A program made the position numbers and the translations under genes. Below the pieces are notes generated by a model. The model did no database searches. It worked only from the letters and a program-made list of their open reading frames with translations, and was not told the origin of the DNA. Below are positions 853 to 33,904 of a stretch of DNA of 34,450 nucleotides, one piece after another. Every line of letters starts with the position of its first letter. The first letter of the stretch is position 1. Source of the stretch: a virus (lineage: Duplodnaviria > Caudoviricetes); IMG/VR virus record IMGVR_UViG_3300033407_000079, positions 1 through 34,450 of that record; one strand, given 5' to 3'.

Positions 853-1157
853 TCGCCTCGGAGCCAGAATTTGACGTTGCCGGTCTTGGTCACGACGCGC
901 ACGTCCGTCGTGAGCGCGCACAGCACAAAGTCCGGCACGCCGGGCTGGACCGGGTAGCCGTCCGTGGCGTCGTCCCCGTCGGCCGTGATGGCGTCGGAAA
1001 AACCGACGTAAACCGGCTCCGCCGCATCGGGGTCAACGGAGATATGCATACCTCGCGTCAGCGCCACTGCGTCGGCCGTGGCCCGCGTGGCCGTCGTGGT
1101 CGCCATCCCGCGACGAGTGAACTTGACCGTTGAGCGGTCGATGTTAATGCTGGTCAC
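849..1157 (-). CDS. small beta-rich hypothetical (virion-like) protein, 102 aa
   Basis: GTG at 1157 overlapping upstream TGA, GGAG RBS; sequence ...PVYVGFSDAIT..DGYPVQPG...; upstream part of the 268-aa ORF call is spurious. Confidence 0.6.
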   Translation of the reverse strand: MTSINIDRSTVKFTRRGMATTTATRATADAVALTRGMHISVDPDAAEPVYVGFSDAITADGDDATDGYPVQPGVPDFVLCALTTDVRVVTKTGNVKFWLRGE

Positions 1158-2041
1158 TGTGTTTCTCCCTGTAAAATGTCCGCGATCAACTCGTCGCGGG
1201 TGAACGGTTTGGTTCCGAGGCGCTCGACCGCCAGGCCGCCGGCGTGCATGGAAAGTTTGCAGGCGTCTTCGATCTGGACTCCGCCGGCCAGGCAGTAGGC
1301 AAGCATCGCCATCACCGCGTCGCCGGCGCCGCAGGGGTCGATGGAGGTGCGCGACGTGGCCGGGAACCATTGGCCCGTGTCCAGAGGATGACTCACCAAG
1401 TCCGCGCCAAACCCGCCGCGCGTAATGAACAGCAGCGGATCGGGGTCTAGGGCGATGTAACTTTCGCGGTACTCCACCACATTCGGTTTGATCACCGTCG
1501 CGCCGGCGTACTTCTGCCAGTCCGCGCCGCGGGCCGGATCGACCAGGACGTGGATGTTCCGCTCGCGGGCCGCGGCGATCAACGTGCGCAGATCGTCGCC
1601 GTCCGGCAGCGCGCCCTTGCCGTAATCGACCAGCGCCACTGTCTCCGGCCCCCACCGCCTCACCGACATTTCGGCCAGCCGCAATGTCCCCAGCGCGTCG
1701 CTGAGCGTAGCCGTACGGTCGCAGTCGTAGCGCAGCACCTGCCGCCCGTCGGCGTCGACCAGTCGCGTCTTGACCACGTGCATCGGCGGCGAGAGACGCC
1801 GGACGTTTGCGCCCAGGCCGGTCAGGTGCTCGGCCACGTTGCCCGCCATCCCCAAGGTCGGCGCCACCTCGCCGGCCGTCTGCCAGCAGGGGGCGTCAGA
1901 CTCCGGATTGTCGCGCCGATTGGCAAGCGCGATCCAGCGGTCGGTACAGACATCGCCGACGACCAAGACGCTAGGCGAATCGATTCGCTGAAAAACTTCG
2001 GCGAGCCGCTGGGCTTCCGTCTGCTTCACTTCCGTCGGCAT
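1154..2041 (-). CDS. hldA: D-glycero-beta-D-manno-heptose-7-phosphate kinase-like (RfaE/HldE domain I, PfkB family)
   Basis: VLVVGDV.TDRW, GMAGNVA..L..LGA, DYGKG, VLVDP, YAGATVIKPN..E, ITRG..GA, PfkB anion-hole DPCGAGDAV. Confidence 0.85.
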   Translation of the reverse strand: MPTEVKQTEAQRLAEVFQRIDSPSVLVVGDVCTDRWIALANRRDNPESDAPCWQTAGEVAPTLGMAGNVAEHLTGLGANVRRLSPPMHVVKTRLVDADGRQVLRYDCDRTATLSDALGTLRLAEMSVRRWGPETVALVDYGKGALPDGDDLRTLIAAARERNIHVLVDPARGADWQKYAGATVIKPNVVEYRESYIALDPDPLLFITRGGFGADLVSHPLDTGQWFPATSRTSIDPCGAGDAVMAMLAYCLAGGVQIEDACKLSMHAGGLAVERLGTKPFTRDELIADILQGETQ

Positions 2042-2433
2042 CGCGCCAGTATCTCCGTCGTGCTGATTTTGGCGATGTGCGGCGGCGGGCGGAGCACGCG
2101 AACCAGACCGCCCCATTGGCGGACCGTCGCTTCTCCGATCACCTCCCGCGTCCGCGCCCCTTTAACTAGATACGATGGCCGCACGTCTTGCAAGAGATGT
2201 GTGAGGTCGTCGAACAGCACGGCTTGCGTGACGCCCGCCACGGCGCGAACAATCGTCACGCGCTCCCAGGCCGGGATCACCGGACGGCCGGGTCCCTTGA
2301 GCTTGCGGACCCGATCGTCGCTATCGACGCCGACGATAAGCTCGCAGCCCATCGCGGCGGCTTCGCGCAGCAACCAGGCATGTCCGGCGTGGAACAGATC
2401 GAAGCAGCCGTTGGTGAAGATGGTGCCGTTCAT
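2026..2433 (-). CDS. hldC: D-glycero-beta-D-manno-heptose-1-phosphate adenylyltransferase-like (RfaE/HldE domain II)
   Basis: FTNGCFDLFHAGH (HIGH motif), VGVDSD..VRKLKGPGRPVI..ER, YLVKG, ISTTEIL. Confidence 0.88.
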   Translation of the reverse strand: MNGTIFTNGCFDLFHAGHAWLLREAAAMGCELIVGVDSDDRVRKLKGPGRPVIPAWERVTIVRAVAGVTQAVLFDDLTHLLQDVRPSYLVKGARTREVIGEATVRQWGGLVRVLRPPPHIAKISTTEILARCRRK

Positions 2434-3683
2434 TGTGGGCGCGGGTTGCGGAGGTGGAAGATGCCCAGGCCGCCCGATTCGTAGTGATGGCCGTAATCCC
2501 ATGTGGCGAAGCGCCTTGCCAGCAGTCGGTTCCAGCGCGCGGACCCGTGATACTCGCCCACGATGAAGCGGATGGAGTCCAACAGCGTTGTTCGGCCGAG
2601 GACGGAATGTTCGCAGCCCTCGCAGTCGAGTTTGAGAAGGTCGATGGTCGATGGTCGAGTGTCCAGCGAGTCAAGCACGGCCTCCAACGTGACGACCGGC
2701 AGCGGCCGCTCGTCCAGCCAATATTGCGTATCCCCGCGCGGCGAAAACGTGTGCGGCGGGAAGCTGACGATCGATCCGCCCGTGCTGGCGCAATGCGGGA
2801 AGACCGCGTTCAACAGCCGCGGCGCCCCCTTTTCGTAAGAACAGGCCGCGTGAACGATCGTGGCGAAGTGCCCGACGTTTTTCTCCAGGGCCGTGAGATT
2901 CTCCGGACAGGCCTCGATGCAGATGATCTTCGCCCGCGGGTTCCGCTCGTGAACCAGCCTGGCGAAACAGCCGATGTGCGCGCCGACGTCGACGACCGTT
3001 TCTGCCGACTCGACGACCCGCGGGATCAACCGCAGCCGGTACGTGTCCTCCTCATACACGTCGCGGACGATCACCAGATCCTTGTCGACGTTGTGTTCGC
3101 GGACCCAGAAGCCGCGGCGCTGGACCAGACTCGGCGGGCAGTCGTAAAGTTCTTTGGGCATGGTCTCTCCAGTCGCGTAGTGTTTTCGATTTTGATTCTC
3201 AATCCGCGCGGCGGTCGTTTGTCCCGGCGTGTGGATCGGGCCTCTGGCGTACGGCAAGCCAATCGTCGGCAGCCAGGCGGCGAGCATTGGCTCGCTCAGG
3301 GATTCGTAAGGGACGATCTCCAACTGTAGTCCCGCACGCATCGCCGTGGCCACGTTGGTCGCGGTCGTCACCGTCCGGTCCAAATAACAGAGGCCGAAAT
3401 CCTTTCCGTGCGCGCGGCTGGCGCTGCGGGCCTGGGCGATCGGTTCTCGGACCATCACGATCGCCGCCACGTGTCCGTAGCCGCACTCCCGCAGCGCCTC
3501 GGCCCAGTACGGCAGCCGGTGATGCTGGACCATTACATACGGCCGCCCGTCGCATTGCGGGATCTCCCCGGACCCGGCCGGCTGATCGGTCGATCCGGAT
3601 CCCCGGCAGCCGGAGCGGACCAGAATCGCTGCCATCAATCGGTTCCCGCTGGCAAACGGGCCGCAGACGATGTAAGCGTTCAT
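2430..3683 (-). CDS. fusion: N-terminal sulfotransferase-like P-loop domain + FkbM-family methyltransferase
   Basis: N-term IVCGPFASGNRLMAAIL, IVMVREP, IVPYESL; C-term VVDVGAHIGCF, IEACPEN, IDLLKLDCEGCEH; ATGA-coupled start at 3683; possible internal start at 3161. Confidence 0.75.
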   Translation of the reverse strand: MNAYIVCGPFASGNRLMAAILVRSGCRGSGSTDQPAGSGEIPQCDGRPYVMVQHHRLPYWAEALRECGYGHVAAIVMVREPIAQARSASRAHGKDFGLCYLDRTVTTATNVATAMRAGLQLEIVPYESLSEPMLAAWLPTIGLPYARGPIHTPGQTTAARIENQNRKHYATGETMPKELYDCPPSLVQRRGFWVREHNVDKDLVIVRDVYEEDTYRLRLIPRVVESAETVVDVGAHIGCFARLVHERNPRAKIICIEACPENLTALEKNVGHFATIVHAACSYEKGAPRLLNAVFPHCASTGGSIVSFPPHTFSPRGDTQYWLDERPLPVVTLEAVLDSLDTRPSTIDLLKLDCEGCEHSVLGRTTLLDSIRFIVGEYHGSARWNRLLARRFATWDYGHHYESGGLGIFHLRNPRPQ

Positions 3684-5098
3684 CCAGCGGCCTCCGCGGT
3701 CTCTGCGGCTCTGCGTGAGGCCTTTAGTCTTTCGCTCACCAGCTCCGGCAGTTCGTAGCGGAGGTGGCGATAGCAAAAGTGGTAGCGGTAATGATCGCGG
3801 AAGTAGCGGTCGCCCGTCGCCCGGTCGCCGCGGATGTACTTTTCATGGTCGGGACAGACCACGTGCGTCACGTTGTCGGCTGGGCAAAAATAGTTCACCG
3901 GATGCAGTTGCTTCCAGACCACGATCGTCGGCGTGTCGGTGGCGGCGGCGATGTGCTCTGGACCACTGTCGATGCCGACGACCAGCGCGCAGCGCTCGAT
4001 CAGCGCCGCCAGTTGCGCCGCGTCGCCCGTGCCCGTCGCGCCCCACATGGGATGACCGGCGCCGAGCATCTCCAGGCCGTCAATCGCTCCGGCCCATTTC
4101 GATCGGTAGGGCGTCTCAAAGTCCAACACCACCGGCACGTGGCCGGCGTCCAAGACGGCCTGGATACAATCGCGGGCGATGTCCTCCTCGATGTTCTTCC
4201 ACGAGCGGGCGGAGTTGCCCTGGTAGTGGAGCAACACGACGGGGAAGCGGGGATGAATGCCTTGTGTCCCTTGTGCCTTCGTGGTGATCGATTCCAGGTA
4301 TCGCTCGGCCTCTTGTTTCTCACAGTCATACGGCTCGACGGAGTAATAGTTGAGTTCCGGAGTGGGCCGGACGCCGAGCATTTCCTTCAGACACCTTTCC
4401 ACTTTGGTGCCGGGAGAATCAGAAAAAGTTTCCTCCGGCTCCGAGAAGCTGACCTGGCGGATGTCGGCGTAGTCGCGCAAGATCGGCTGATCGGCGCCGG
4501 GGACGTTGTACGTAAAGGTTCTGCGGGCCAGGCCGCGGAACGCGGTGTGGGCGCCGACCTTCGAGCGGATGTCGATCGTCAACTCCGGGTGGATGGCCCT
4601 GACGTGGCGCAGAACCGCGGTGAACTGGACGGCGTCGCCCAGCCCGTGCGGGAACGTCCAGAGCGCCAGCTTCGGTGCCGCGCCCACCAGCGGCTCCGGC
4701 GGAGGGCAGAGTTTTTTGCAGACCCGCGTGAGCGGGAAGATCGCGTTGAGCGAATCCTGCCGTACACGACATCCACATCCGGCTCTCCGCTCTCCGCTCT
4801 CCGCTCTCCGCAGCCAACGACTATACCGGCTCGGCTGCTGCGTCAACAGCTTCCGCACTTCGACGCACTTGTGCGGTATCCAGTTCACGGCGACCCAGTG
4901 CAACGCGTACGCGACCAGATCACCCGCGCCGCGGCAGGTGCAAGTGACCGTTGTGGCCAGATCGATCCGCCGGCAGGTGTGGCGGATCCTATCCGCCAAA
5001 AATCGAGTCGGGTTGGTGCGTAGACCGCAGGCGGAACATTGCCAAACGTACGGACGATCTGGATCGTCAGTCTCATGGTGAAGTTTCCAGGTATTCAT
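3680..5098 (-). CDS. glycosyltransferase family 9 (ADP-heptose transferase-like) with Cys-rich N-terminal extension
   Basis: PHGLGDAVQF and LVVGIDSGPEHIAAATDTPTIVVW GT9 motifs; N-term CSAC, CTC.G.GD, GCGC..RQ..LN. Confidence 0.82.
   Translation of the reverse strand: MNTWKLHHETDDPDRPYVWQCSACGLRTNPTRFLADRIRHTCRRIDLATTVTCTCRGAGDLVAYALHWVAVNWIPHKCVEVRKLLTQQPSRYSRWLRRAESGERRAGCGCRVRQDSLNAIFPLTRVCKKLCPPPEPLVGAAPKLALWTFPHGLGDAVQFTAVLRHVRAIHPELTIDIRSKVGAHTAFRGLARRTFTYNVPGADQPILRDYADIRQVSFSEPEETFSDSPGTKVERCLKEMLGVRPTPELNYYSVEPYDCEKQEAERYLESITTKAQGTQGIHPRFPVVLLHYQGNSARSWKNIEEDIARDCIQAVLDAGHVPVVLDFETPYRSKWAGAIDGLEMLGAGHPMWGATGTGDAAQLAALIERCALVVGIDSGPEHIAAATDTPTIVVWKQLHPVNYFCPADNVTHVVCPDHEKYIRGDRATGDRYFRDHYRYHFCYRHLRYELPELVSERLKASRRAAETAEAAG
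4783..4810. repeat. (CTCTCCG)x4 perfect heptamer tandem repeat inside the GT9 gene
   Basis: read directly from sequence. Confidence 0.9.
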
Positions 5099-5104
5099 AT
5101 GCGA

Positions 5105-5722
5105 TCAGGGCGCCGCGATCGGGGAAGCAGTGGCTTGACTCGCACCGGTGTATTCGCAGCGAGCCGCATTGGAAAAAAAAAAGTCGCAGACGATCAGATC
5201 TGCGAGGCAATCGACGTCGCCAACGGGATTGTAGCGCCACAGACTTTCGCCCACGGGTTCATTCATTTGTATTTCAAACGACGAACCGGCTGGTACGGTC
5301 TGGACGACGGCCTCGAAGTTGATGGTGTCCCCGCTGGGACCATCGCACGGGAAGAACGAATCACCTTGTCGACCGCAATGTAATTCGAAAACGAACCCGG
5401 TAGGTCCGAGAATGTACGCGCCCGGCAGTGTGTCGCAGTTGGCTTGCGTGCAGGCTGCGGTTTGGCTGGTGAATCCGTCTGGTATTTCGACCTGATAATA
5501 CTCGGACATTCTGCCGTCGAGACATACAGCGCAACCCTCAATAAACGTAATGCCTGGGCTGCTGGTCGACGTGCTGCCCGGCGGAGGAGGGGGAAAATCT
5601 ATAATCGACGAACCGCTGCCGAACACCGAACCGTCAACAGGGCAGCAGCACGGGTAGCCGCCGGCCATGCCGAGCAGGAGGCTGGAAAGGACGGCAAGGA
5701 TGATGTCTTCGGGAATCAGCAT
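5105..5722 (-). CDS. Cys-rich hypothetical protein (hydrophobic N-terminus, PCCC motif)
   Basis: ORF fits operon; MAGGYPCCCP motif, Pro/Ser linker, many Cys. Confidence 0.65.
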   Translation of the reverse strand: MLIPEDIILAVLSSLLLGMAGGYPCCCPVDGSVFGSGSSIIDFPPPPPGSTSTSSPGITFIEGCAVCLDGRMSEYYQVEIPDGFTSQTAACTQANCDTLPGAYILGPTGFVFELHCGRQGDSFFPCDGPSGDTINFEAVVQTVPAGSSFEIQMNEPVGESLWRYNPVGDVDCLADLIVCDFFFSNAARCEYTGASQATASPIAAP

Positions 5723-17381: not shown

Positions 17382-19874
17382 TTACGCGCCGGCGTTGCGC
17401 ACGATGCCGCGATGGTTGTTGCCAGTCACGCCGACGACCGTCTTGACTTTCCAAATGCGGGCTTCGCTCTTTGGCTCGTCGCGCGAGGTCAGGCGGAACC
17501 CGCCCTCGTAACCTCGCTGAAACGCATACGCGATGCTGTCGATCATCGACGGCCACGCGCCGCCGTAATACTTGACGGCGCTGTCGTCGCTGAGCATCGG
17601 TTCCGCGATCGGCGTTACGGCGCCGCGGAACGTCTCCGTGTTGGAGGCCGACGTGGGCACGACGAGGACGGACGGAGAAAGCGTCTGCTTCGCAACGGTG
17701 ATCAACTCGTTGGGGACCAGCAGCCACTGCAAAAAGAGATTCGCAAATTGCTTGTTGCTGACGTCCTTTTGTTGACGCAGCAACAAGTCCATCGCGTCAA
17801 ACTCGGATTGCGACGGCGCCCCGCCCGACGTGCGGTCGTTGCCGTGGCCGGCGGTAAACAAAGCCGTCCCGTCATAGATGGCCTCGTTATTGACCAGTAG
17901 ATTGACGCACAGCCGATTGGCCGTGGCGTCCGCGGCACGCGCCAGCCTGGCGGCCACCCGCGGCAGTTGTCCAAGGTCGTCATCCACAATCATGCGGCGG
18001 GTGATCGCAAATTCATTCGCGTACTCGTCGACCGAAATGAACGCGACTTCCTCGCTGGGCTTGATCTTCTTGGGTTCCTCGTAGCCATCCGGCCAGTGGT
18101 CCAGTTCGCCAACCTCGCCGAGCTTGTGGATCGACTTCGGCTTGAAGTCGGCAATGGGGGCGAGACGCGCTGCCCACTGGCGATAACTGTGATCCGCCAG
18201 GCCGATTTCCTTGTCCATCATCTTGCCAAGCGTGGCCGACAGCAGATTGGGGAAGTCGGACGGATGTGCGCCGCCGCCGGCGGCCATGTAAACCGTTTCG
18301 CCGCCGGAGAGCATGTGCGCGGCAATCGTTTCCGGATCGTCCGATGCACGATGCCCGGACTGTCGCATGAACATCTTTCCCAGATCGGTCAGTCGCTCGT
18401 AGCGGTGCTGATGAGCGCCGGCCGGCATGTCGGCCTCTGACAGGGCGCCCAGGCGGTGCTCCAACACGGCGCCGAACACGGTCAAAAAGTTATCGTGTTC
18501 ACTGGCGACCGGCTTGATTGGCGGGCGGTCTTTCGACGCCTTCTCGGTGAACTGCTTCGCCGCCTTGGCGAACGACATGTCGATGTCCTTGCAAGCCGCC
18601 TCGATGTCGGCGGCGTCGATCCCCATCGTCTCACCGCAGGCGCGGATTGCGTTGATGCGGTCGTTTTCCTCCGCCGCGATTTTTCGGGGATCCAACTCCA
18701 CGTGCGGCTTGTCGTGGCAGCGCGTTTCGTCTTCTTTGCACGTTGCCTTCGTGCCGCAATCGGGCTTTTCTTCTTCGCACGTCGGCTTGGTTTCCTCACG
18801 CAAGGCGATCACGATGGCCTGCGCTCCGCTGGGGACCGCACGGCCGCGAGCACCGAAAAACCCTCGCAGGGAGGCTTGGCAAACGTCGTCTGCCGCGTTC
18901 GGCTCGACCAGTCCGAGCGCTTCAAGTTGTTGGCGAATTTTCCGTTCCATCTTGATCCTCGCGATGGGTAAAAAAGAGACTCTCGTAAACCCGCTCGACG
19001 ATGAGCGGCCCTCACCGCGGATCGCCGCGATGGTGTCTTGTAGCGTTCCGATCCGATCGATGAGTCCGCGCTCCAGTGCGGCCGGCGCCAGAAACACTCG
19101 GCCGGCGCCGTATCGCTCCCGGACCTCCGCGACGCTGATGCCGCGGTTACGAGCGACGGCGGATTCAAACTGTTCCGTCGTGTCGTCGATCCGCGATTGC
19201 AGAATCGACCGCGCGCCAGAGTCCAGCTTTTCAAACTCGTTCGGCCTGCCCTTGCTTTCCGGCTGGCGGATCACCGTGCTGGTGACGCCGTTGCGTTTGT
19301 CCGCCTCGGTAAACTCGGTGTGGACGGCGAACGCGCCAATAGAGCCGATTTCTGAGCTTGGGCTGCCGACCAGTTCGTCCGCGGCACTGAAAATCCAGTA
19401 CGCGCCAGAAGCGCAAATATTCCGTGCGACGCCCGTGATGGGCTTTTGGCCCCGGGCCTGATACACCAGGTCGCCGACCTCGTGAACGCCGGCAGCCGCG
19501 CCGCCTGGTGAATCAACATCGAGAACGACATGTCGCACGGAATCATTCGCCATCGCGCGGCGAAATGCTTCCGAAAATGCTTCGGTTGAGGTGCCGCCGC
19601 TGATTTTCACAAGCATGTCCATCCGCGGCGACAAGACGCCGTGCAGGTGCAGGACGGCGATGCCGTCGACCATCGTCATCAACTCCCGCTCGCCATCGCG
19701 GTCTTCGCCGATCCGCTGTTGGATTTCGTCGGCGGTGAACCGGTAACCGTCGGCGCGCAGGTTGATGAGTTCGCAGATTTGCTCCAGCTTCTCCGGCAGG
19801 ATCACCCACGGCGATTGGCTGATCGCCCGTATGATCTTGTTGTAGCGCCGGTCGTGGAGGCTGCGTCGCGGCAT
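17382..19874 (-). CDS. S49 prohead protease - scaffold - major capsid protein fusion
   Basis: S49 motifs LDVDSPGG, CASGAYWI.SAA, EIGSIG; C-terminal Mu gpT/HK97-like capsid (SDFPNLL, DFKP, ITRRMIVDDDLG, DGTALF...HGN, LLVP..L, RGIVRNAGA). Confidence 0.9.
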   Translation of the reverse strand: MPRRSLHDRRYNKIIRAISQSPWVILPEKLEQICELINLRADGYRFTADEIQQRIGEDRDGERELMTMVDGIAVLHLHGVLSPRMDMLVKISGGTSTEAFSEAFRRAMANDSVRHVVLDVDSPGGAAAGVHEVGDLVYQARGQKPITGVARNICASGAYWIFSAADELVGSPSSEIGSIGAFAVHTEFTEADKRNGVTSTVIRQPESKGRPNEFEKLDSGARSILQSRIDDTTEQFESAVARNRGISVAEVRERYGAGRVFLAPAALERGLIDRIGTLQDTIAAIRGEGRSSSSGFTRVSFLPIARIKMERKIRQQLEALGLVEPNAADDVCQASLRGFFGARGRAVPSGAQAIVIALREETKPTCEEEKPDCGTKATCKEDETRCHDKPHVELDPRKIAAEENDRINAIRACGETMGIDAADIEAACKDIDMSFAKAAKQFTEKASKDRPPIKPVASEHDNFLTVFGAVLEHRLGALSEADMPAGAHQHRYERLTDLGKMFMRQSGHRASDDPETIAAHMLSGGETVYMAAGGGAHPSDFPNLLSATLGKMMDKEIGLADHSYRQWAARLAPIADFKPKSIHKLGEVGELDHWPDGYEEPKKIKPSEEVAFISVDEYANEFAITRRMIVDDDLGQLPRVAARLARAADATANRLCVNLLVNNEAIYDGTALFTAGHGNDRTSGGAPSQSEFDAMDLLLRQQKDVSNKQFANLFLQWLLVPNELITVAKQTLSPSVLVVPTSASNTETFRGAVTPIAEPMLSDDSAVKYYGGAWPSMIDSIAYAFQRGYEGGFRLTSRDEPKSEARIWKVKTVVGVTGNNHRGIVRNAGA

Positions 19875-21415
19875 CAGGCGGCCCCCCGCTGTCCGGTCAC
19901 TGCCGCCGGCTCTTCCGGCTCTTCGGGGAAGCGATCGCTGCCGGCGCCTTGCGTCGAGAGGTCAAACGTCAGTCCCGATGCCTCGATCATCTCGACTTCG
20001 CGCTTGCGTTCGCGGATCAAATCCTCAAACGAACCTTCCCCGCGTTTTTCCAGTTCGCGCGTCCAGGTGGACAACCCGGCGGCGATGCGGCGGATGGCCG
20101 CCGCGTCTTCCTTCATTTCGTCGAGTTGCAACCGCCCCGGCAAAATCAGCTTCGTGCGCAGCCAGCGCCGAGGATTGGTGCGGAAGACTTCGGGCCGCAA
20201 CGTGCCGTTGAAACGGCCCAGCGAAGCCGCCATCGCGGTGAAGCGCTCGCGGATCGGCACCACCACGCGCTGTCCGAACGAGCGGCTGATGGGCGCGAAC
20301 GTGCGGAAGTCGTCATTGTGCGCGGCACGCGCAGAACTGTAGTTTGTGCGGCTGTAGTCGCGCGTGTTGCGCAGCGCGGAAATGCCCGTCGCCATCGAAT
20401 GTTCGGTGTGGATCACATCGTAAAACGGCGGCAGGTTCGGCCCTGGCTGCGTCGGGTTGACGCCTTGCACGTCGTCGTCGGCGCCGATTTCGTTGATGAT
20501 TCCCTTGCCGAGCTTAAACAGGTTGTTGCCGGCGTCGTCGGTTGTTGAACTGTCGCCGCTCTCGACCAATCCCAGGCCACTACCGGACGGATGCGCGCTC
20601 TTGAGCACCAGCGTAAAGATGGCCTGGATCGCGGCGGCGCTGAGCACGTTGCCGATAAGCCAATCCCGGTCCCGGGCCGGCAGCATCGCCGCGCGCCACC
20701 AACTGACGCCGCGGGTTTCGCCGGGACGGGTGCGGTTGAAGTAATGCAGCACGCGCGCGGCCGGGATCCGCTGGCTCTGGTTGTCAAAGGTGCCGAAGGG
20801 GTCGGCCGGATGGGCGCCGTAGAGATAAAACGCCACCGCGCGGCCGGCGTTGTCCAGTTCCACGCCGCGGCGGATTTCGTTTTCGCCGTTGCGCGCCAGA
20901 CGGTCTTTCGTCAGGTCTATCTGCTCGGCTTCGAGCAACTGGTAGCACAATGGCAGCGATCGGTTTCGGTCCTTGTCGATGCACTCCAGCCAAAGCGTTT
21001 CACCGACGTTGGCCGTCTCCAATAGCGCCAACCGTTGCATTTCAGCGAACGTGTAGCTGCCGTCGGACGCTACTTCGCGCATCGCCCATTCGTCGAACAG
21101 GTCGTCAGCCAACGTGTTGAATTCCAGGTCGAGCGCTTCCGCCTCGCCGGTCGGTAGCGTCACCGCCGCGCTGGCGCGCAGCCCTTGCCCGATGCAGTGA
21201 TCGGCCAGCACGCGGCCGGCTGCGATGATGGCCGGCTCGTTGCGGATTTGATCGCGGATGCGACTGGTCATCAGATCCCAGTCGCCGTGAATCGCGCCGT
21301 CGCCCGATCGGTGTGGCGGCAACCAATCCTTGGTCATCCGCGTGCGCGCGCCGCCCTTGTAGGCGTTTTCCGACGCCTGAATGCCGAACAGCTTGGCGAT
21401 TGCTTTGCGAATCAT
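19874..21415 (-). CDS. phage portal protein, lambda family
   Basis: R.RDQIRNEP, QLLEAEQID, IRRGVELD..GR.VAFY, RPGETRGVSW, DYSRTNYSSARA; ATGA-coupled start at 21415. Confidence 0.92.
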   Translation of the reverse strand: MIRKAIAKLFGIQASENAYKGGARTRMTKDWLPPHRSGDGAIHGDWDLMTSRIRDQIRNEPAIIAAGRVLADHCIGQGLRASAAVTLPTGEAEALDLEFNTLADDLFDEWAMREVASDGSYTFAEMQRLALLETANVGETLWLECIDKDRNRSLPLCYQLLEAEQIDLTKDRLARNGENEIRRGVELDNAGRAVAFYLYGAHPADPFGTFDNQSQRIPAARVLHYFNRTRPGETRGVSWWRAAMLPARDRDWLIGNVLSAAAIQAIFTLVLKSAHPSGSGLGLVESGDSSTTDDAGNNLFKLGKGIINEIGADDDVQGVNPTQPGPNLPPFYDVIHTEHSMATGISALRNTRDYSRTNYSSARAAHNDDFRTFAPISRSFGQRVVVPIRERFTAMAASLGRFNGTLRPEVFRTNPRRWLRTKLILPGRLQLDEMKEDAAAIRRIAAGLSTWTRELEKRGEGSFEDLIRERKREVEMIEASGLTFDLSTQGAGSDRFPEEPEEPAAVTGQRGAA

Positions 21416-25579: not shown

Positions 25580-26201
25580 CCTGCCCAACAGCGGCAGCAC
25601 GTGGCTCGCCGAAATCCTCGCCCGCCACATTCCACAGGCGCGGTACGCGATGGAGTATTTCAATCCACTGCGAAATTCCGCCCGCTTCGATGTGCTCCGC
25701 CACGGCTTCGGATGCGAACTGCAAAGCTGCTCCCGTTGGATCGTTGACACGCCAGGCGAAGCACAACTCGACGATATCTACGCGCGATCCTGGGCGCTGG
25801 ACGGTTACAACTTCACCAAGGAGGTATTTTCGCCCACAAAGCTTCGGTGGTTCCATCGCCACTTTCGTTGCGCCGTCCTCATCACCCGCCCTGAACTTGC
25901 GTTCCCTCCATCGCGGCTGCGTGTGTACTCGTTTTACGAACACGCACACTGCGCCATTTGGCCAAGTCGGCCATTCCCTTCCGTGCACGCAGCGGCCGTA
26001 CGCACCATGATCCACCTGACGGATCGACTCGTCGAAGATGCCCACAAACTCTCGGTTCCGGTGCTCGATTACCATGAGTTGCTCACAGGCGATTTCTCAT
26101 TTTTAGCCTCATTCCTTCCCCATCTTTCCTTCGGACTCGATCCGGACGATTGTGCTCGCGACATCATTTCCACGCGCCGACATCCCCTGCGGCGCTGCTA
26201 A
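25533..26201 (+). CDS. sulfotransferase-like protein
   Basis: LISLPNSGSTWL (5'-PSB-like), EYFNP, FTKE, VLDYHELL; start codon uncertain. Confidence 0.65.
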   Translation: MDSGIGNRSRQTALISLPNSGSTWLAEILARHIPQARYAMEYFNPLRNSARFDVLRHGFGCELQSCSRWIVDTPGEAQLDDIYARSWALDGYNFTKEVFSPTKLRWFHRHFRCAVLITRPELAFPPSRLRVYSFYEHAHCAIWPSRPFPSVHAAAVRTMIHLTDRLVEDAHKLSVPVLDYHELLTGDFSFLASFLPHLSFGLDPDDCARDIISTRRHPLRRC

Positions 26202-26953
26202 CGAACCGCAGTCGGATTCGATCTTGCGACATTGATCCGCATCGGGACGACAGTACGGTTTTTCACGACGTTTGAGGCCGCGTGCAACACACACCTTCCC
26301 CACCGCCGCTTGATTTCCCGCGTCACGGCGATCCTTCGCCTTTGGTCCACCAGATCCACATTTCCGCCAGCGCCGCCGAATATCCGGCCATTGGCGAAAA
26401 AGAACCTGGTGTCGGCATACACCGCGCGGTCGTCGCGCAGCGTCCGCAAGGTCCAATCCAGGTCGCCGCGGCCGATCAGCGACTCGTCGTACCTCCTACT
26501 CCGGGCGGCGCCGCGGATTCCGAACGCAACGCAGACCGGTTGCACGGCGCGAATCGGCCGATTGGCGGGGTCGATCACCGTGTAGTTTGGGGTGCGGGAA
26601 AAGCAGCAGCACGTCATGTCCAGATCCTCGATCACTCGAAGTCCGTTAGTCACGACAACAGCGGCGTCGTCAGCCGATAGATGCCGCGTCGGCGGAATTG
26701 TGGTCCGTACTGCGATCACATCGTCATCCACGAAAAACAGCGCCGGTTCCTCAAAGTGATCCAGACACCAGTTGAACACCGCGGCGAATCCGAGTTTTCC
26801 CGGGTGGCAAACCAGCCGGCGACGCGCGACGACCTGCGTGTAAGAGTCGCGCTCCGCGCGATCGACAACAATCGTAGCGCCGGGAAAAAGCGCCGCGGAC
26901 CTCCTAATCTGACGTAGCCTTTTTCGGCTTGGAATTATGAGCCTGTAAGACAT
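26198..26953 (-). CDS. TET-associated/GREB1-like GT-A glycosyltransferase
   Basis: IIPSRKR start, FFVDDDV DxD motif, D.DWTL, F...GG, ..RRWG. Confidence 0.7.
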   Translation of the reverse strand: MSYRLIIPSRKRLRQIRRSAALFPGATIVVDRAERDSYTQVVARRRLVCHPGKLGFAAVFNWCLDHFEEPALFFVDDDVIAVRTTIPPTRHLSADDAAVVVTNGLRVIEDLDMTCCCFSRTPNYTVIDPANRPIRAVQPVCVAFGIRGAARSRRYDESLIGRGDLDWTLRTLRDDRAVYADTRFFFANGRIFGGAGGNVDLVDQRRRIAVTREIKRRWGRCVLHAASNVVKNRTVVPMRINVARSNPTAVR

Positions 26954-27584
26954 CCAACACCCGTTCCGCCGCCACAGCGCGGCATATTCCCAACCGGCTT
27001 TTTTTTAAGCCCTTGATCCGCTCGACGCCGATCCCCAATGCCGCACAGAGTGTATTCCACGTCGAGCTATCGCGCGCGCAAATCACGACGTAGTCATAGT
27101 GTTCATGCGGCGCAAGATTCATTCCGTCCGTTTCTGTACCGCCATCTTCCTCTTCGCCCGGCGCCTGCTCTTCATCGATCACCTTGGGAGCGATCTGATC
27201 GGCCAACCGCTTAAGATCCGCTTCCTCAAACTCGATCTGCCGAAGCAGATCGCTCAGCTTAGATTTGTCGACCTCAGCCATCTGAGAGACCGAGTCCAGC
27301 GTCGCCAGCAGCTTGTCAGCCTCGGCTTCTGAAACGTCGAGTACCAGCACAGGCACGCGTTGGTCGGGAGTGATCTCCGCTCTCAAATGCCCATCGATTA
27401 GGACCAACGAACCATCTGTCTCTTCTCGGGCCAATAATGCATCTGCGTATCCCACCTCACTTAGGATCGCGCGCAATCGATTTCGCTGCGAATCCGGATG
27501 CCGGCGGAAATTTTTGGGATTAGCCATCAATGTCGAGGCTTTGACTCGCCGCAATGACCTGATCCGATCACGCACCTCACCCAT
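26904..27584 (-). CDS. ParB/Srx N-terminal domain protein
   Basis: L.ANPKNFRRHP..Q...L..IL.EVGY...LL......LIDGHLR; C-terminal HYDYVVI domain. Confidence 0.8.
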   Translation of the reverse strand: MGEVRDRIRSLRRVKASTLMANPKNFRRHPDSQRNRLRAILSEVGYADALLAREETDGSLVLIDGHLRAEITPDQRVPVLVLDVSEAEADKLLATLDSVSQMAEVDKSKLSDLLRQIEFEEADLKRLADQIAPKVIDEEQAPGEEEDGGTETDGMNLAPHEHYDYVVICARDSSTWNTLCAALGIGVERIKGLKKSRLGICRAVAAERVLDVLQAHNSKPKKATSD

Positions 27585-27624
27585 GATGATGAACTCCCGA
27601 TTTCCGACCAAGCGCCCAAAAAGC

Positions 27625-29669: not shown

Positions 29670-30836
29670 CTATTGGTCCGGCGTGATCGTGATGATCGCT
29701 TCCGCCCTCAACTCCCGCTTGATTTCGCTCTTCACCTCGGCTTTCAGCGACGCCAACTCCTCGCGGATCGCCGCGCGCACGGACGCAATATCGACGCCTT
29801 CGCCGGCCGGACCCGGGGGCCCGGGATCTCCCTTCGGACCCTGCGTCCCTTCCGGGCCAGCCGGACCAGCGGCCCCGGCGCCCGCAGCAGAGTCCTTCAA
29901 CGATTGCAAATCCGTGCGCAGGCTGCCGAGGTCTTGTCTCGTGTCTTGCACCTCCGCCAGCAGCGCATCGACTTGATTTTTTAGATCGACCAGCGATTGC
30001 GGCTGTTCCGGTTGCGGTTTCACGGTCGGCGCCTCCGGAGTGGGAACGCGAATCCGCGGAGGAGGGCAGTCGTATCCGCCGGCGTACTGGTCGGCCCCGT
30101 CGCCACCAATCGGGATCGTGTTGCCGACGATCAGGTTGCCGAATCGATCGACCGGTTTGCCCGGCTGCGAACCTGCTCGCGGGCGCGGCGGCAGGTTCGG
30201 CGCCAGCCAGGCGATGCGATTGCCGACCTGCTGTAAAAATCGCTTGATGCACGTCAGCCGCACGGCCATCGTGCTCGTCGCATGGTCGCTGCCCCACAGA
30301 ATCCCGCACAACCGACCTTGCGCGTCCAGTATCGGACCGCCGCTGTCGCCAGAGCGCACGCCGGTGGCGATCGAAAACCACTCACCGGGGCCATGATCTT
30401 GACGATAGACGCCGCGCGAAGCGCGAAACTGCATACCGCCAGGGCCGTAGCCGGCGGCCGTTAAAACCTCTCCGCGGCTTGGCGCGCTGTCGCGTATCTC
30501 CACCGGCTCAACGCCTGACGGCTCGTTGATCAACAGGGCCGCCAGGTCGTTGCGCCGATCCGAGGAGACTACGCGACACCGAAAACTCCCATGTATCGGA
30601 AATTGCACACGCCCGGTGCCGTTGCTGTCGCGGACGACGTGCGCGTTGGTCAGACAGAGACCTTGACCGCCTCCTTTGGCGATCAGGATTCCCGATCCGC
30701 CGCTACCGTCGCTCATCCACACCCGCACAATCGCCGGTTGGGTGAGGTTGGCCGACGCCGGACGTCGCGCAGAAATACCCACCAGCGGTCCCGCCAACTG
30801 CGCTTGGCCCGCGCCCGGCGGGCAGACTCCACCCAC
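29670..30836 (-). CDS. trypsin-like serine protease with Pro-rich linker, coiled coils and collagen segment (possibly C-terminal part of a UGA-readthrough protein starting at 31094)
   Basis: triad motifs LTNAHVV, NDLAAL, GDSGGP; 9 Gly-X-Y triplets GAAGPAGPEGTQGPKGDPGPPGPAGEG. Confidence 0.85.
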   Translation of the reverse strand: MGGVCPPGAGQAQLAGPLVGISARRPASANLTQPAIVRVWMSDGSGGSGILIAKGGGQGLCLTNAHVVRDSNGTGRVQFPIHGSFRCRVVSSDRRNDLAALLINEPSGVEPVEIRDSAPSRGEVLTAAGYGPGGMQFRASRGVYRQDHGPGEWFSIATGVRSGDSGGPILDAQGRLCGILWGSDHATSTMAVRLTCIKRFLQQVGNRIAWLAPNLPPRPRAGSQPGKPVDRFGNLIVGNTIPIGGDGADQYAGGYDCPPPRIRVPTPEAPTVKPQPEQPQSLVDLKNQVDALLAEVQDTRQDLGSLRTDLQSLKDSAAGAGAAGPAGPEGTQGPKGDPGPPGPAGEGVDIASVRAAIREELASLKAEVKSEIKRELRAEAIITITPDQ

Positions 30837-31094
30837 TCAGCCGGCCTCGGCCGATTGAGGCCAGAACGGTTGAAACGGCAGAGAAATCCAAAGCGCGATC
30901 AACAGCTTGATCGGCGTGTCGGTCACGAACCGCAGGATGACGTTCCCGACCGCGACCGCGGCGGCGATCCAGAGCGCGGCTTCGGGGTGCTCTGAGATTA
31001 GCTCTTGATTTGAGAGCGCCGTCAGGATCGCCACCACGAGCGTGACGGCGTTGAGCCAGAATGTGCGGCTCTTGAAAAACGGCTTCGGGTCCAT
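30837..31094 (-). CDS. holin-like membrane protein
   Basis: KPFFKSRTFWLN N-terminus, two TMs, NVILRFVT..PI, third hydrophobic segment ending AEA. Confidence 0.7.
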   Translation of the reverse strand: MDPKPFFKSRTFWLNAVTLVVAILTALSNQELISEHPEAALWIAAAVAVGNVILRFVTDTPIKLLIALWISLPFQPFWPQSAEAG

Positions 31095-31166
31095 CAGGCG
31101 GCCTCGGGCGCATGTGCATCGATGCGGCCCGCCTGATCCTGGCGCACTGGAACTCCTATCCAGCCG

Positions 31167-31370
31167 TTACGTGGAATCTAGCCCCAGAAAGGGGAACGTG
31201 TCAAGCGTTTGCCGGTCGACGCACTCTTCCCGGAGGATCCGCACGTCGGTATCGGCCTGGAATGCCAGCTTGCTGGTTTGATCGTCCAGGTTTGTGATTT
31301 TCGCGCATCCGTGCCGCGAGAGCAGGTAGACGCAGCGCTTCGGTTTGATGCGCAGGATCAGGTTTGGCAT
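31167..31370 (-). CDS. divergent CsrA-like protein
   Basis: LIL...., .KLAFQA..DVRILREE matches CsrA beta5/helix signature; GGAG RBS. Confidence 0.55.
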   Translation of the reverse strand: MPNLILRIKPKRCVYLLSRHGCAKITNLDDQTSKLAFQADTDVRILREECVDRQTLDTFPFLGLDST

Positions 31371-31860: not shown

Positions 31861-32103
31861 CTAGTCACCATGTCGTAAGTCATCCAAGTATGCTTGTGGG
31901 TCATCAATCTGGTCCCATGCGTCCAGCCCGGCGGCGCGCAATTTACTGATCGCTTCATCGACGTTTCCGATTTTGGGGCTTTTGTCTTGTTCCTTCGTCC
32001 GCTCCCACTCGGCGTTGACGCAATGCACGGTGTGCTCGGCGCCGACACTTATCCAAGCAACTGGTTTTCCGTTTGCGTCGTAAATCGTCTGCTTATGGGT
32101 CAT
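31861..32103 (-). CDS. hypothetical protein, paralog of 32093-32308
   Basis: AEHTVHCVNAE and DAWDQIDDP shared. Confidence 0.6.
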   Translation of the reverse strand: MTHKQTIYDANGKPVAWISVGAEHTVHCVNAEWERTKEQDKSPKIGNVDEAISKLRAAGLDAWDQIDDPQAYLDDLRHGD

Positions 32104-32308
32104 CAATCTGGTCCCATGCGTCTGATGCCAATTGCAGCAGTCGGTAATATTCGGCGTTGACGCAATCCACGATGTGTTCGGCACTGGTGGTCGAGACAAA
32201 AAACGGGGCGACCGTCTGGTTGTCGGCCGAGACGATCATGGCAGAAGTGCGATCCTCCAAATCAAACAGCACTCTCCACGGCCTGGGGGGAATCTTGTCG
32301 TCAGTCAT
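32093..32308 (-). CDS. hypothetical protein
   Basis: P.PWRV...AEHIVDCVN motif typical of small phage early proteins. Confidence 0.65.
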   Translation of the reverse strand: MTDDKIPPRPWRVLFDLEDRTSAMIVSADNQTVAPFFVSTTSAEHIVDCVNAEYYRLLQLASDAWDQIDDP

Positions 32309-32790: not shown

Positions 32791-33012
32791 CTACCCCTCC
32801 GGCTCTGGCAACGGTCCGGCGAACTCGCCGCCCATTTCGTTTACGTCCCGATACTCGCGGTCATGGAATGCAAACAGCCGACCGGGCGCGTGATCGAATC
32901 TAACCACCTTAACGACTATCGGCCCCCGCCAGTCGGTGTACTTCCGCGAGATGTGATCTTGACGGAACCAATACTGCCCCGCCTCGGTCGGGCGTTCTTT
33001 GGTGTACTTCAT
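32791..33012 (-). CDS. hypothetical phage protein
   Basis: MKYTKERPTEAGQYWF...FAGPLPEP pattern; ATGA overlap. Confidence 0.7.
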   Translation of the reverse strand: MKYTKERPTEAGQYWFRQDHISRKYTDWRGPIVVKVVRFDHAPGRLFAFHDREYRDVNEMGGEFAGPLPEPEG

Positions 33013-33359
33013 GGCTTCACCCACTCGCGTGAGACTTTGATGATCGTATCGCAAATCTCAAAATATTCCTGGAACAAGGATTTGCACTCGTCGGATATCG
33101 ATCCGTCATACACGCCTCGCATCTGGAAGCTGCGGTTCCTTTCCTCACGCCAAAAGTTCCTGACGGTTATCGAGCCGCCGAACATCCGCTTGACTGACGG
33201 CGGAGCGGAATGCAACCAATCGGCTACTAACGCATCGTCCGGCGGGCCTGGCAGAACGGCAGCGCGGAGGTCACGTGCGATCTCGTATTCAGACCTGACA
33301 GCCAGGTGTTTGATGGCCGCCTCGAACTTCTCGCGGTCCAGCGTGATGGTTTCAGGCAT
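33009..33359 (-). CDS. hypothetical protein, N-terminus paralogous to 33566-33904
   Basis: PETITLDREKFEAA...RAAVLPGPPDDA. Confidence 0.65.
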   Translation of the reverse strand: MPETITLDREKFEAAIKHLAVRSEYEIARDLRAAVLPGPPDDALVADWLHSAPPSVKRMFGGSITVRNFWREERNRSFQMRGVYDGSISDECKSLFQEYFEICDTIIKVSREWVKP

Positions 33360-33573
33360 CGTCTTCCTCCACATTCAGCGCATCGGTCACTGACTCGCGG
33401 CATTGCCGGCACAGGTGCTGACTCTTTCCAACGCAGAGCCATCCGCGCGGTGTGCCGACATTTCCCAGCTTGGTTCCGCACAGGTCACACGTCCATGTGC
33501 TCCAATGATGGTACGGTGTGGCATCACACGTGGCGGGAACAAACGTGCCGAGAACAAACACCATGCTAGCCAT
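33352..33573 (-). CDS. small zinc-ribbon protein
   Basis: TCDLCG...GW...HLCRQC. Confidence 0.6.
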   Translation of the reverse strand: MASMVFVLGTFVPATCDATPYHHWSTWTCDLCGTKLGNVGTPRGWLCVGKSQHLCRQCRESVTDALNVEEDDA

Positions 33574-33904
33574 CGTCTTCCTCGCCTTCCTTCACCCACC
33601 TGCCGTCTTCTCGGAAGTCGTAGCCCTCGGATTTCATCAACTTGATAAAATTGAAAACAAACGGGCCGTGCCTGTACGCCGCATTGTAGTGACTCACCGC
33701 CCGCGCGAACGCATCGTCCGGCGGGTCGGGCAGGATGGCGGCTCGAAACAGAGCGGCGGTCGCGTGATCCCTGCTGAAACTGTTGCGTGTGGTCAACCGC
33801 AGTATGGCGGTCGCGTGATCCCTGGAATTCTTGCGTGTGATCAACCGCAGCATGGCCGCCTCGAACGTCTCGCGGTCCAGCGTGATCGTTTCAGGTTTGC
33901 TCAT
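33566..33904 (-). CDS. hypothetical protein with internal duplication
   Basis: GGGGAG RBS; LRL.TR...SRDHATA occurs twice. Confidence 0.65.
   Translation of the reverse strand: MSKPETITLDRETFEAAMLRLITRKNSRDHATAILRLTTRNSFSRDHATAALFRAAILPDPPDDAFARAVSHYNAAYRHGPFVFNFIKLMKSEGYDFREDGRWVKEGEEDDG

Follow-up and report, generated by a model that had tools for sequence, protein, structure and literature searches.

The locus studied here raises the question of what a single in-frame TGA, placed between a holin-like and a protease reading frame, does in translation. It lies in a 34,450-nt virus record (the window, that is, the whole stretch of DNA that was analysed), which carries lambda-like terminase, portal and protease-capsid genes. 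The phage comes from soil and its host is likely to be a planctomycete bacterium, an assignment made solely from the taxonomy of the genomes that carry relatives of the protease; by the record titles of 80 loci these are nearly all Planctomycetota and mostly Pirellulales.

On the minus strand, an 85-codon ORF (31094-30837) ends in TGA, and a GTG followed by the remainder of a 388-codon ORF abuts it in frame. The initial annotation of this DNA had described the pair as one frame with a single internal stop (window 29670-31094, minus strand; ...PQSAEAG*VGGVCPPG...) and had given the read-through product as 474 residues long, both of which were confirmed from the frame. It had further proposed that the TGA is a selenocysteine codon or a site of regulated read-through. 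The features of the locus are collected in Table 1.

Table 1. Features assigned in the window
Feature	Position	Strand	Remark
Sigma-70-like promoter match TTGACA-18-TAGATT	31175..31204	(-)	81 nt upstream of holin start; predicted
GGCCG[CG]CTGA, 10-nt motif ending in TGA	19874-19883, 30837-30846, 31094-31103	(-)	precedes protease-capsid start, junction GTG and holin start
Holin-like two-helix membrane domain, residues 1-64	30903..31094	(-)	stand-alone homologues about this length
Predicted ancestral protease signal peptide, residues 65-84, h-region LLIALWISLPF	30843..30902	(-)	aligns with P0025 signal
GAGG, Shine-Dalgarno-like, also Glu-Ala codons	30845..30848	(-)	8 nt before GTG
In-frame TGA	30837..30839	(-)	predicted mature position +2, first Cys of family C-x4-C motif
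GTG, candidate restart codon or Val87	30834..30836	(-)	unchanged in L002 and X2
Alternative stem-loop burying stop and GTG	30809..30844	(-)	RNAalifold consensus of two alleles
SECIS-like hairpin	30790..30822	(-)	within 46-nt tract identical between alleles
Protease ORF, GTG to TAG, 388 aa	29670..30836	(-)	same length and frame in L002
S1 (trypsin-like/HtrA-fold) serine protease domain, residues 121-295	30210..30734	(-)	Pfam Trypsin_2 E 2e-21
Long helix 368-406 (likely coiled coil) and short collagen-like repeat 407-431, predicted	29802..29993	(-)	

The in-frame TGA is real and conserved

A check of the codon against sequencing data, which the initial annotation had called for, returned TGA in Logan contigs. 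Contig X1 (depth 50.6), which possibly represents the source sample, was identical to the window over 30778-30875, TGA included, and its depth roughly equals the sum of two holin haplotypes (36 and 12.5). A contig from a second study (X2, depth 2) retained the TGA despite 29 differences in 260 nt; 28 of these differences are listed and none falls at the TGA codon. The TGA is also present in L002, an allele 95.8% identical to the window, and a cluster member (P0022) likewise ends at EAG, implying the same stop. Sequencing error is ruled out by the depth of X1 and by the retention of the TGA in X2 and L002. Since L002 and X1 may stem from related samples, these sequences amount to three or four haplotypes and not to independent lineages. 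Differences between alleles come within 10 nt of the TGA on its 5' side and within 6 nt on its 3' side, so a recent sweep of the stop is unlikely.

Beyond the window contig itself (L001) and L002, no close relatives were found in viral contigs or GenBank phages. Samples of genomes from the class (401) and from the order (401) gave holin-like matches only and no close relative of the locus, and no distant relative with the same stop was found in viral contigs, genome samples or pattern scans. A search for longer forms of the 85-residue ORF gave none, and a profile search returned only P0025, itself a member of the profile. None of the outcomes that the initial annotation had named as fatal to its proposal (homologues that are always two genes with TAA or TAG or in different frames, TGC in the reads, or a unique nonsense mutation with no conserved hairpin) was encountered outright.

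Both flanking ORFs are under purifying selection. Between the window and L002, pN/pS was 0.15 in the holin part, 0.38 in the signal, 0.33 in the linker, 0.11 in the protease and 0.19 in the tail, and in both alleles the 388-codon ORF is free of additional stops and of frameshifts. Stop and frame are thus conserved in close alleles with selection on both sides. Downstream of the stop, a 46-nt tract (30826-30781) is identical between the alleles. The variation is patchy, which suggests recombination and weakens the statistics on invariance and selection; moreover, the conservation tests are weak, since no more than two haplotypes differ past the stop.

A global recoding of UGA had already been denied in the initial annotation, and TGA indeed ends 23 of the 43 ORFs listed as likely genes, which means that it serves as an ordinary stop and that global recoding is absent. 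No tRNA genes were found within the window, and both global recoding and a phage suppressor tRNA were rejected for the window, whose record covers only part of the genome. An Rfam scan gave a single match at chance level.

Several other features of the window deserve mention in their own right. A sugar-modification cluster stands at the end of the virion genes (1154-5098, minus strand) with a PfkB-family kinase, an FkbM methyltransferase and a family 9 glycosyltransferase. A Cys-rich 205-residue protein (5105-5722, minus strand) has an N-terminal hydrophobic segment, a CCC motif and no family match. At 26198-27611 (minus strand), a ParB-like gene and then a gene resembling beta-glucosyl-HMC-alpha-glucosyltransferase possibly form a DNA-modification pair. 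Duplicated segments of 32-44 nt occur among small ORFs (31888-32182 and 33229-33895), a region in which L002 departs from the window by insertions and deletions, and the ORFs at 33009-33374 and 33566-33904 have similar first residues.

The stop appears to lie inside an ancestral fusion

Helices of the holin-like domain are predicted at residues 10-28 and 37-57. A search with this family gave 57 distinct rows, comprising 52 stand-alone homologues (about four-fifths of them 51-68 residues long), the two alleles of the locus itself, one fusion (L231) and two weak false matches (L229 and L230), which were excluded from the counts. At 10 of 30 sampled holin-family loci, where 80 of 87 neighbouring ORFs were covered, a peptidoglycan hydrolase (amidase, GH108 or M15 peptidase) lies within about 1 kb, and nine of these ten hydrolases have no N-terminal hydrophobic segment. 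The family thereby shows what is expected of holins, a small membrane protein of one to three helices beside an endolysin; at the present locus the neighbour is a protease, and no peptidoglycan hydrolase was detected among the 44 ORFs of the window. There was no match to a Pfam or NCBIfam holin family, and PHROG holin matches were weak (E 0.02-0.05). The hydrolase neighbours support a putative holin role, and we speak of a holin-like protein without placing it in a curated family. At one further locus (L239), a signal-less trypsin-like protease lies just upstream of the same holin. The sigma-70-like promoter match was found once, versus 0.2 expected in shuffles. We discarded a 17-codon leader ORF that overlaps the holin start, since L002 has GGG in place of its GTG.

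As a separate observation, a holin-like gene often precedes a gene for a signal-bearing exported protein in planctomycete-type phages or prophages (L231 and L225 in genome G206, L233, L240, L247 and L254). In G206 the two are fused into a 345-residue protein that is present in two copies.

The downstream ORF shows the two-barrel fold and the His-Asp-Ser triad with GDSGG that define S1 proteases. Its triad (H152-D183-S251) is intact, the triad columns are invariant among its relatives, and its top fold matches were Rv3671c, HtrA1, MucD and DegS. It shares fold and catalytic triad with MarP (Rv3671c), HtrA and DegS, but scores far below the NCBIfam cut-offs for MarP and HtrA, has no PDZ domain and differs in its holin-like N-terminus and internal stop. 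Fold and triad are also those of the signal-bearing S1 family of Planctomycetes (P0004, P0025 and L028), and identity to Planctomycete relatives is 40-48%. The same helix and collagen-like tail are present in P0003-P0005, P0007, P0009 and P0025.

A reading of the third hydrophobic segment as the export signal of the protease, put forward in the initial annotation, is borne out by P0025, the third match in a search of 1.8 billion proteins. This protein combines, in one stop-free ORF, a membrane domain, a signal ending in SAAEAAG, an insert of ~90 residues and the protease, and residues 65-84 of the window's frame align with its signal. The two membrane domains are 40% identical over 63 residues (E 1e-9). 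In three alleles the signal segment is intact before the stop, with a hydrophobicity of 2.2-2.3; its predicted cleavage site, A-E-A|G, was placed by eye. In L020, holin and protease are separate genes and the protease has its own signal, followed by QCAGGAC. Together, the P0025 fusion and the aligned signal point to a stop inside an ancestral fusion: the TGA appears to interrupt a holin-signal-protease protein at position +2 of the predicted mature enzyme.

The stop had also been said to sit where a Cys would be expected, and this held among the homologues. Eight loci among L003-L162 matched the motif pattern, one of them with Leu far upstream; the seven with the motif at the equivalent distance all have Cys (six TGC, one TGT). 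In L028 (A|QCVGGVCP) and L020 (G|QCAGGAC), the first Cys is in the same register as the stop. The C-x4-C pair after the signal is optional, being present in 11 of 149 proteins (read by eye), and P0025 has Trp at the stop column, as read from its protein sequence. An AlphaFold model was uninformative on the Cys pair, the junction being disordered (pLDDT below 50 at 72-115). Thioredoxin-like CxxC domains follow the signal in some protease relatives (L036, L058, L061, L074, L081 and P0129), and a CxxC...CxxC module does so in many others.

A signal-like stretch in the same ORF is the rule in this clade. Among 160 protease loci, 20 that lacked the motif used in this assessment and two that were cut were set aside, and 135 of the remaining 138 (113 of 116 distinct) have such a stretch, as do 129 of 149 relative proteins; a cytoplasmic form is hence rare. 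One of the three exceptions is borderline, and another (L162) was discarded as a signal-less protease since its signal is missing only through a frameshift. The third, L016 (2755-3078 of a viral contig), has an S1 protease signal, an in-frame TGA, a 9-bp hairpin from 2 nt after it and then the protease domain. No start abuts this TGA, a TTG following 24 codons on. No close relatives of L016 were found; it is a single unaligned contig and possibly an error or a pseudogene.

Coupled restart at the adjacent GTG is the leading reading

The junction is best read as a case of gene fission in which translation restarts, in a coupled manner, at the GTG that follows the stop, and to this reading we assign a probability of roughly 0.45; this figure, like the ranking of all other readings, is a judgement and was not computed. 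Under this reading, a change of TGC to TGA would have split the ancestral fusion and would have survived because a Shine-Dalgarno sequence and a GTG already flanked the site. Translation would terminate behind the 85-residue holin-like protein and resume at the GTG, with a stem-loop over the start codon controlling the restart. In the holin, the former signal would persist as a third helix; the signal-less protease would wait in the cytoplasm until the triggered holin releases it to act as a lysis enzyme. We infer every step after the split, namely the restart, its control by the stem-loop, the holin activity and the role of the protease in lysis, from sequence.

The GAGG before the GTG had been entered in the initial annotation as a caveat against its own proposal. 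This caveat gained support, and restart now leads, narrowly ahead of read-through by a near-cognate tRNA. As expected of a coupled gene pair, the start is close to the upstream stop, here at a spacing of 0 nt, and an SD-like sequence precedes it, here by 8 nt. The tract common to both alleles begins exactly at the first G of the GAGG. In the preceding four codons the alleles disagree, and the -3 residue of the signal site is Leu in L002 instead of Ala. The anti-SD energy of the GAGG (-5.9) equals that of the holin's own start and is matched by 15% of random sites; Glu-Ala pairs give GAGG in 22 of 35 cases (8 genes).

The motif GGCCG[CG]CTGA, a pattern defined after two of its three sites were known, occurs at three sites on the coding strand (from 31103, 30846 and 19883), each at a gene start or junction, and once on the other strand. 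A 14-nt version is found at the holin start and the junction only. The motif may be a phage-specific coupling signal. Two other in-frame abutments of stop and start, both TAG ATG, are located between neighbouring virion genes (14229/14228 and 6399/6398, minus strand). Restart is further favoured by the lack of a hydrophobic N-terminus in nine of the ten hydrolases beside this holin family, by the signal-less protease of L239 and by the purifying selection on both ORFs.

Conceivably, RNA structure plays a part in the restart. Structure over the downstream start is one of two coupling models presented in the accessible portion of PMC12548453, and the two-allele stem-loop that buries the GTG would fit the model in which such a structure is unfolded. 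Of three post-stop substitutions, two fall in its loop and one turns a U-G pair into C-G; there is no two-sided compensatory change. In a 110-nt context its probability was 0.99 in L002 and 0.00 in the window allele, and it was no more stable than shuffles.

Some observations speak against restart. A cytoplasmic protease would be a rarity in this clade, in which 135 of 138 loci have a signal-like stretch. Three alleles retain an undamaged signal ahead of the stop, and the stop stays TGA exactly at the +2 Cys. The GAGG may merely reflect ancestral Glu-Ala, which is present in P0025 too, and a Val also follows the Cys in L028. Finally, L016 has a post-signal in-frame TGA without an abutting start.

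Near-cognate read-through is a tentative second reading

A leaky UGA is the close rival of restart, a reading that we hold only tentatively. The locus would then yield mostly holin alone, while a minority of ribosomes would insert Trp or Cys via a near-cognate tRNA and produce the 474-residue fusion, from which signal peptidase would free the protease on the outer side of the inner membrane; through the stop, holin would be made at a high ratio to protease. Supporting this idea, a signal-like stretch is kept by 135 of 138 protease relatives, and stop-free fusions exist in P0025 and, with another exported domain, in L231. The charge pattern fits export, with a basic N-terminus, an acidic loop, and R55 and K63 before the third segment. 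The stop is in register with the Cys of L028 and L020 and with the Trp of P0025, the TGA is retained in all alleles seen with the signal intact in three, the downstream 46-nt tract is invariant, and L016 may be a second case.

Native tRNA-Trp gives background read-through of UGA in E. coli, according to the available text of PMC13092985, and Qbeta provides a phage precedent in the part of PMC8310308 that is accessible. On the other hand, the perfect restart geometry would be a coincidence under read-through, and in L002 the -3 residue of the signal changed while the GAGG stayed. The conservation tests are, as stated, weak, with two haplotypes differing downstream; L016 is one contig without close relatives that may be an error or a pseudogene; and the Trp of P0025 is known from the protein and not from the codon. 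To our knowledge, UGA-G is not among the leakiest bacterial contexts.

Restart and read-through lie close together and can coexist, and a small read-through background alongside restart is possible. That one frame yields three products, a holin, a cytoplasmic protease and an exported fusion, is a plausible combination, although we would sooner expect it not to hold.

Insertion of selenocysteine is unlikely

The initial annotation had favoured selenocysteine (Sec), and had suggested that lysis might be tied to the selenium status of the host. Host SelB and tRNA-Sec, guided by the downstream hairpin, would in this case produce an exported protease with a U-x4-C pair. We consider this unlikely. 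Several points do speak for it: all seven DNA homologues that have the motif show Cys opposite the UGA, with homology continuing past it, and SelB scored over cut-off in 83 of 301 genomes of the Pirellulales, the likely host order, with SelD also present in 55 of 57 tested and many SelD genes containing an in-frame TGA. These 301 genomes represent the order of G001, a Pirellulales record. Independently of the phage, we observed several Sec-type SelD genes or two SelB genes in Pirellulales genomes G426 (four SelD copies), G423 and G604, and Sec-type Rdx in five of five tested Pirellulales genomes. No TGA-type genes of the MvhD or NiFe hydrogenase type were found in five genomes each.

The hairpin folds as had been described, at -19.8 kcal/mol, and its GGGCCAA loop lies 26 nt downstream of the UGA. 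It lies within the general bSECIS limits (loop of 3-9 nt, stem of 4-16 bp, G in the first two loop positions, 16-37 nt from the UGA, MFE <= -7.5), which the accessible portion of PMC13188914 sets out. The claimed fit to the general model thus stands, but it is unspecific: in our own script of these limits, 80 of 400 random positions pass, as does one of 22 other TGA stops. Moreover, the stability of the hairpin is at chance (z 0.37; five windows per allele gave z values from -1.6 to +0.4), competing folds have similar energy, and the loop-closing pair has P 0.29 in a 60-nt window and 0.00-0.94 depending on the window. The 12 hairpin codons are unchanged between alleles, with P 0.003-0.006 against the local background and 0.10 against the whole gene; taken as the longest run, P is 0.02, 0.08 or about 1, depending on the background.

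Elements of the likely host type served as a specific control. GU in the SECIS loop is the contact for SelB in E. coli. We folded 22 elements of real Pirellulales genes without constraint (15 SelD, 2 formate dehydrogenase and 5 Rdx), and 21 had GU in the apical loop (all 5 from Rdx and 16 of the 17 from SelD or formate dehydrogenase) on clean stems of 5-9 bp; the SelD elements are mutually related, so they are not 15 independent cases. In all 25 Pirellulales elements searched for it, GU lay 18-34 nt after the UGA, a count that is partly circular. Like SelD, formate dehydrogenase alpha and Rdx of the Pirellulales, the junction shows a correspondence of UGA and Cys, a hairpin 16-37 nt downstream and a G opening the loop. 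Unlike them, it has no loop GU, a short upper stem of 4 bp and a residue that is neither catalytic nor conserved, and it is encoded by a phage and confined to one lineage. The candidate loops are GGGCCAA or GCGCAG, and the only form with a GU loop has P 0.03 and lies at 39 nt.

The passages available from PMC13188914 allow the SECIS G to be followed by G or U and mention elements that break the model, so the lack of GU lowers the probability of Sec without excluding it. SECIS-like hairpins are also folded by Cys-type genes, according to the accessible part of PMC13582414, which fits caution about the hairpin here. A scan for the pattern U-x-G-G-x-C-P-P-G gave 62 viral matches; none is a protease gene, and they were rejected as chance-like. 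Sec insertion is accordingly not supported, given the missing GU loop, the optional C-x4-C pair (11 of 149), the Trp in P0025 and the want of a second Sec-type homologue, and neither is a link between lysis and host selenium. The locus was not filed as a selenoprotein gene because the test against host-type SECIS elements failed. That a host SelB reads a non-standard GGG-loop hairpin, so that the UGA gives either holin alone or a holin-anchored exported U-x4-C protease, is an improbable variant.

No phage selenoprotein was found in the literature searched; supplements and BSepDB tables, which were outside its scope, could hold prophage entries. The portions of PMC13188914 and PMC13326102 that were available make no mention of phages, and the phage mentions in the available part of 10.1101/2022.07.06.499078 concern an absence of phage context.

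The least likely reading is a neutral or harmful nonsense mutation, after which the protease would no longer be made and the signal of selection would predate the stop; the restriction to three or four close haplotypes from possibly related samples and the patchy variation suggestive of recombination fit it, but the differences flanking the TGA make a recent sweep unlikely, the depth of 50 in X1 excludes a read error, and the 388-codon ORF is uninterrupted in both alleles with an intact triad and a pN/pS of 0.11.

Discussion

In canonical holin-endolysin lysis cassettes, a small membrane protein stands beside a hydrolase. The present locus is similar in its small two-helix membrane protein beside a hydrolase, and relatives of the former adjoin amidases, GH108 enzymes and M15 peptidases. 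It departs from such cassettes in pairing the membrane protein with an S1 serine protease that bears a collagen-like tail and has a putative lytic role, and in that this protease shares the reading frame of the holin, on which its former signal peptide would have stayed. The coupled f1 VII/IX genes and the MS2 and fr coat/lysis genes, as treated in the accessible portion of PMC12548453, resemble the junction in their adjacent stop and start, an SD inside the upstream gene and possible structure over the start. Here, in contrast, stop and start follow each other in frame with 0 nt between them, and the pair would have arisen by fission of one gene, so that read-through would rebuild a meaningful protein.

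Read-through of Qbeta coat/A1 reportedly inserts Trp. As in that system, insofar as it is covered by the available text of PMC8310308, the in-frame UGA could lead to two products, one short and one long, that share an N-terminus; here, however, the phage has dsDNA, the products are a membrane protein and an exported enzyme, an in-frame start follows the stop, and read-through is hypothetical. The junction would resemble a translationally coupled holin-hydrolase cassette that possibly leaks as Qbeta does.

If the Sec reading were true, a phage gene would depend on the selenium machinery of its host and would be the first bacteriophage selenoprotein in the literature searched, which the evidence makes unlikely. 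Lysis by planctomycete phages is barely described, and our literature search found no paper on this topic by title. The S1 protease in the slot beside a holin-like gene occurs in four arrangements: as a separate secreted protein (L020), as part of a fusion (P0025), without a signal (L239), and as a fusion broken by a stop, which is the case in the phage of the window. In this last arrangement, the stop would determine whether the same enzyme is exported or is released at a time set by the holin.
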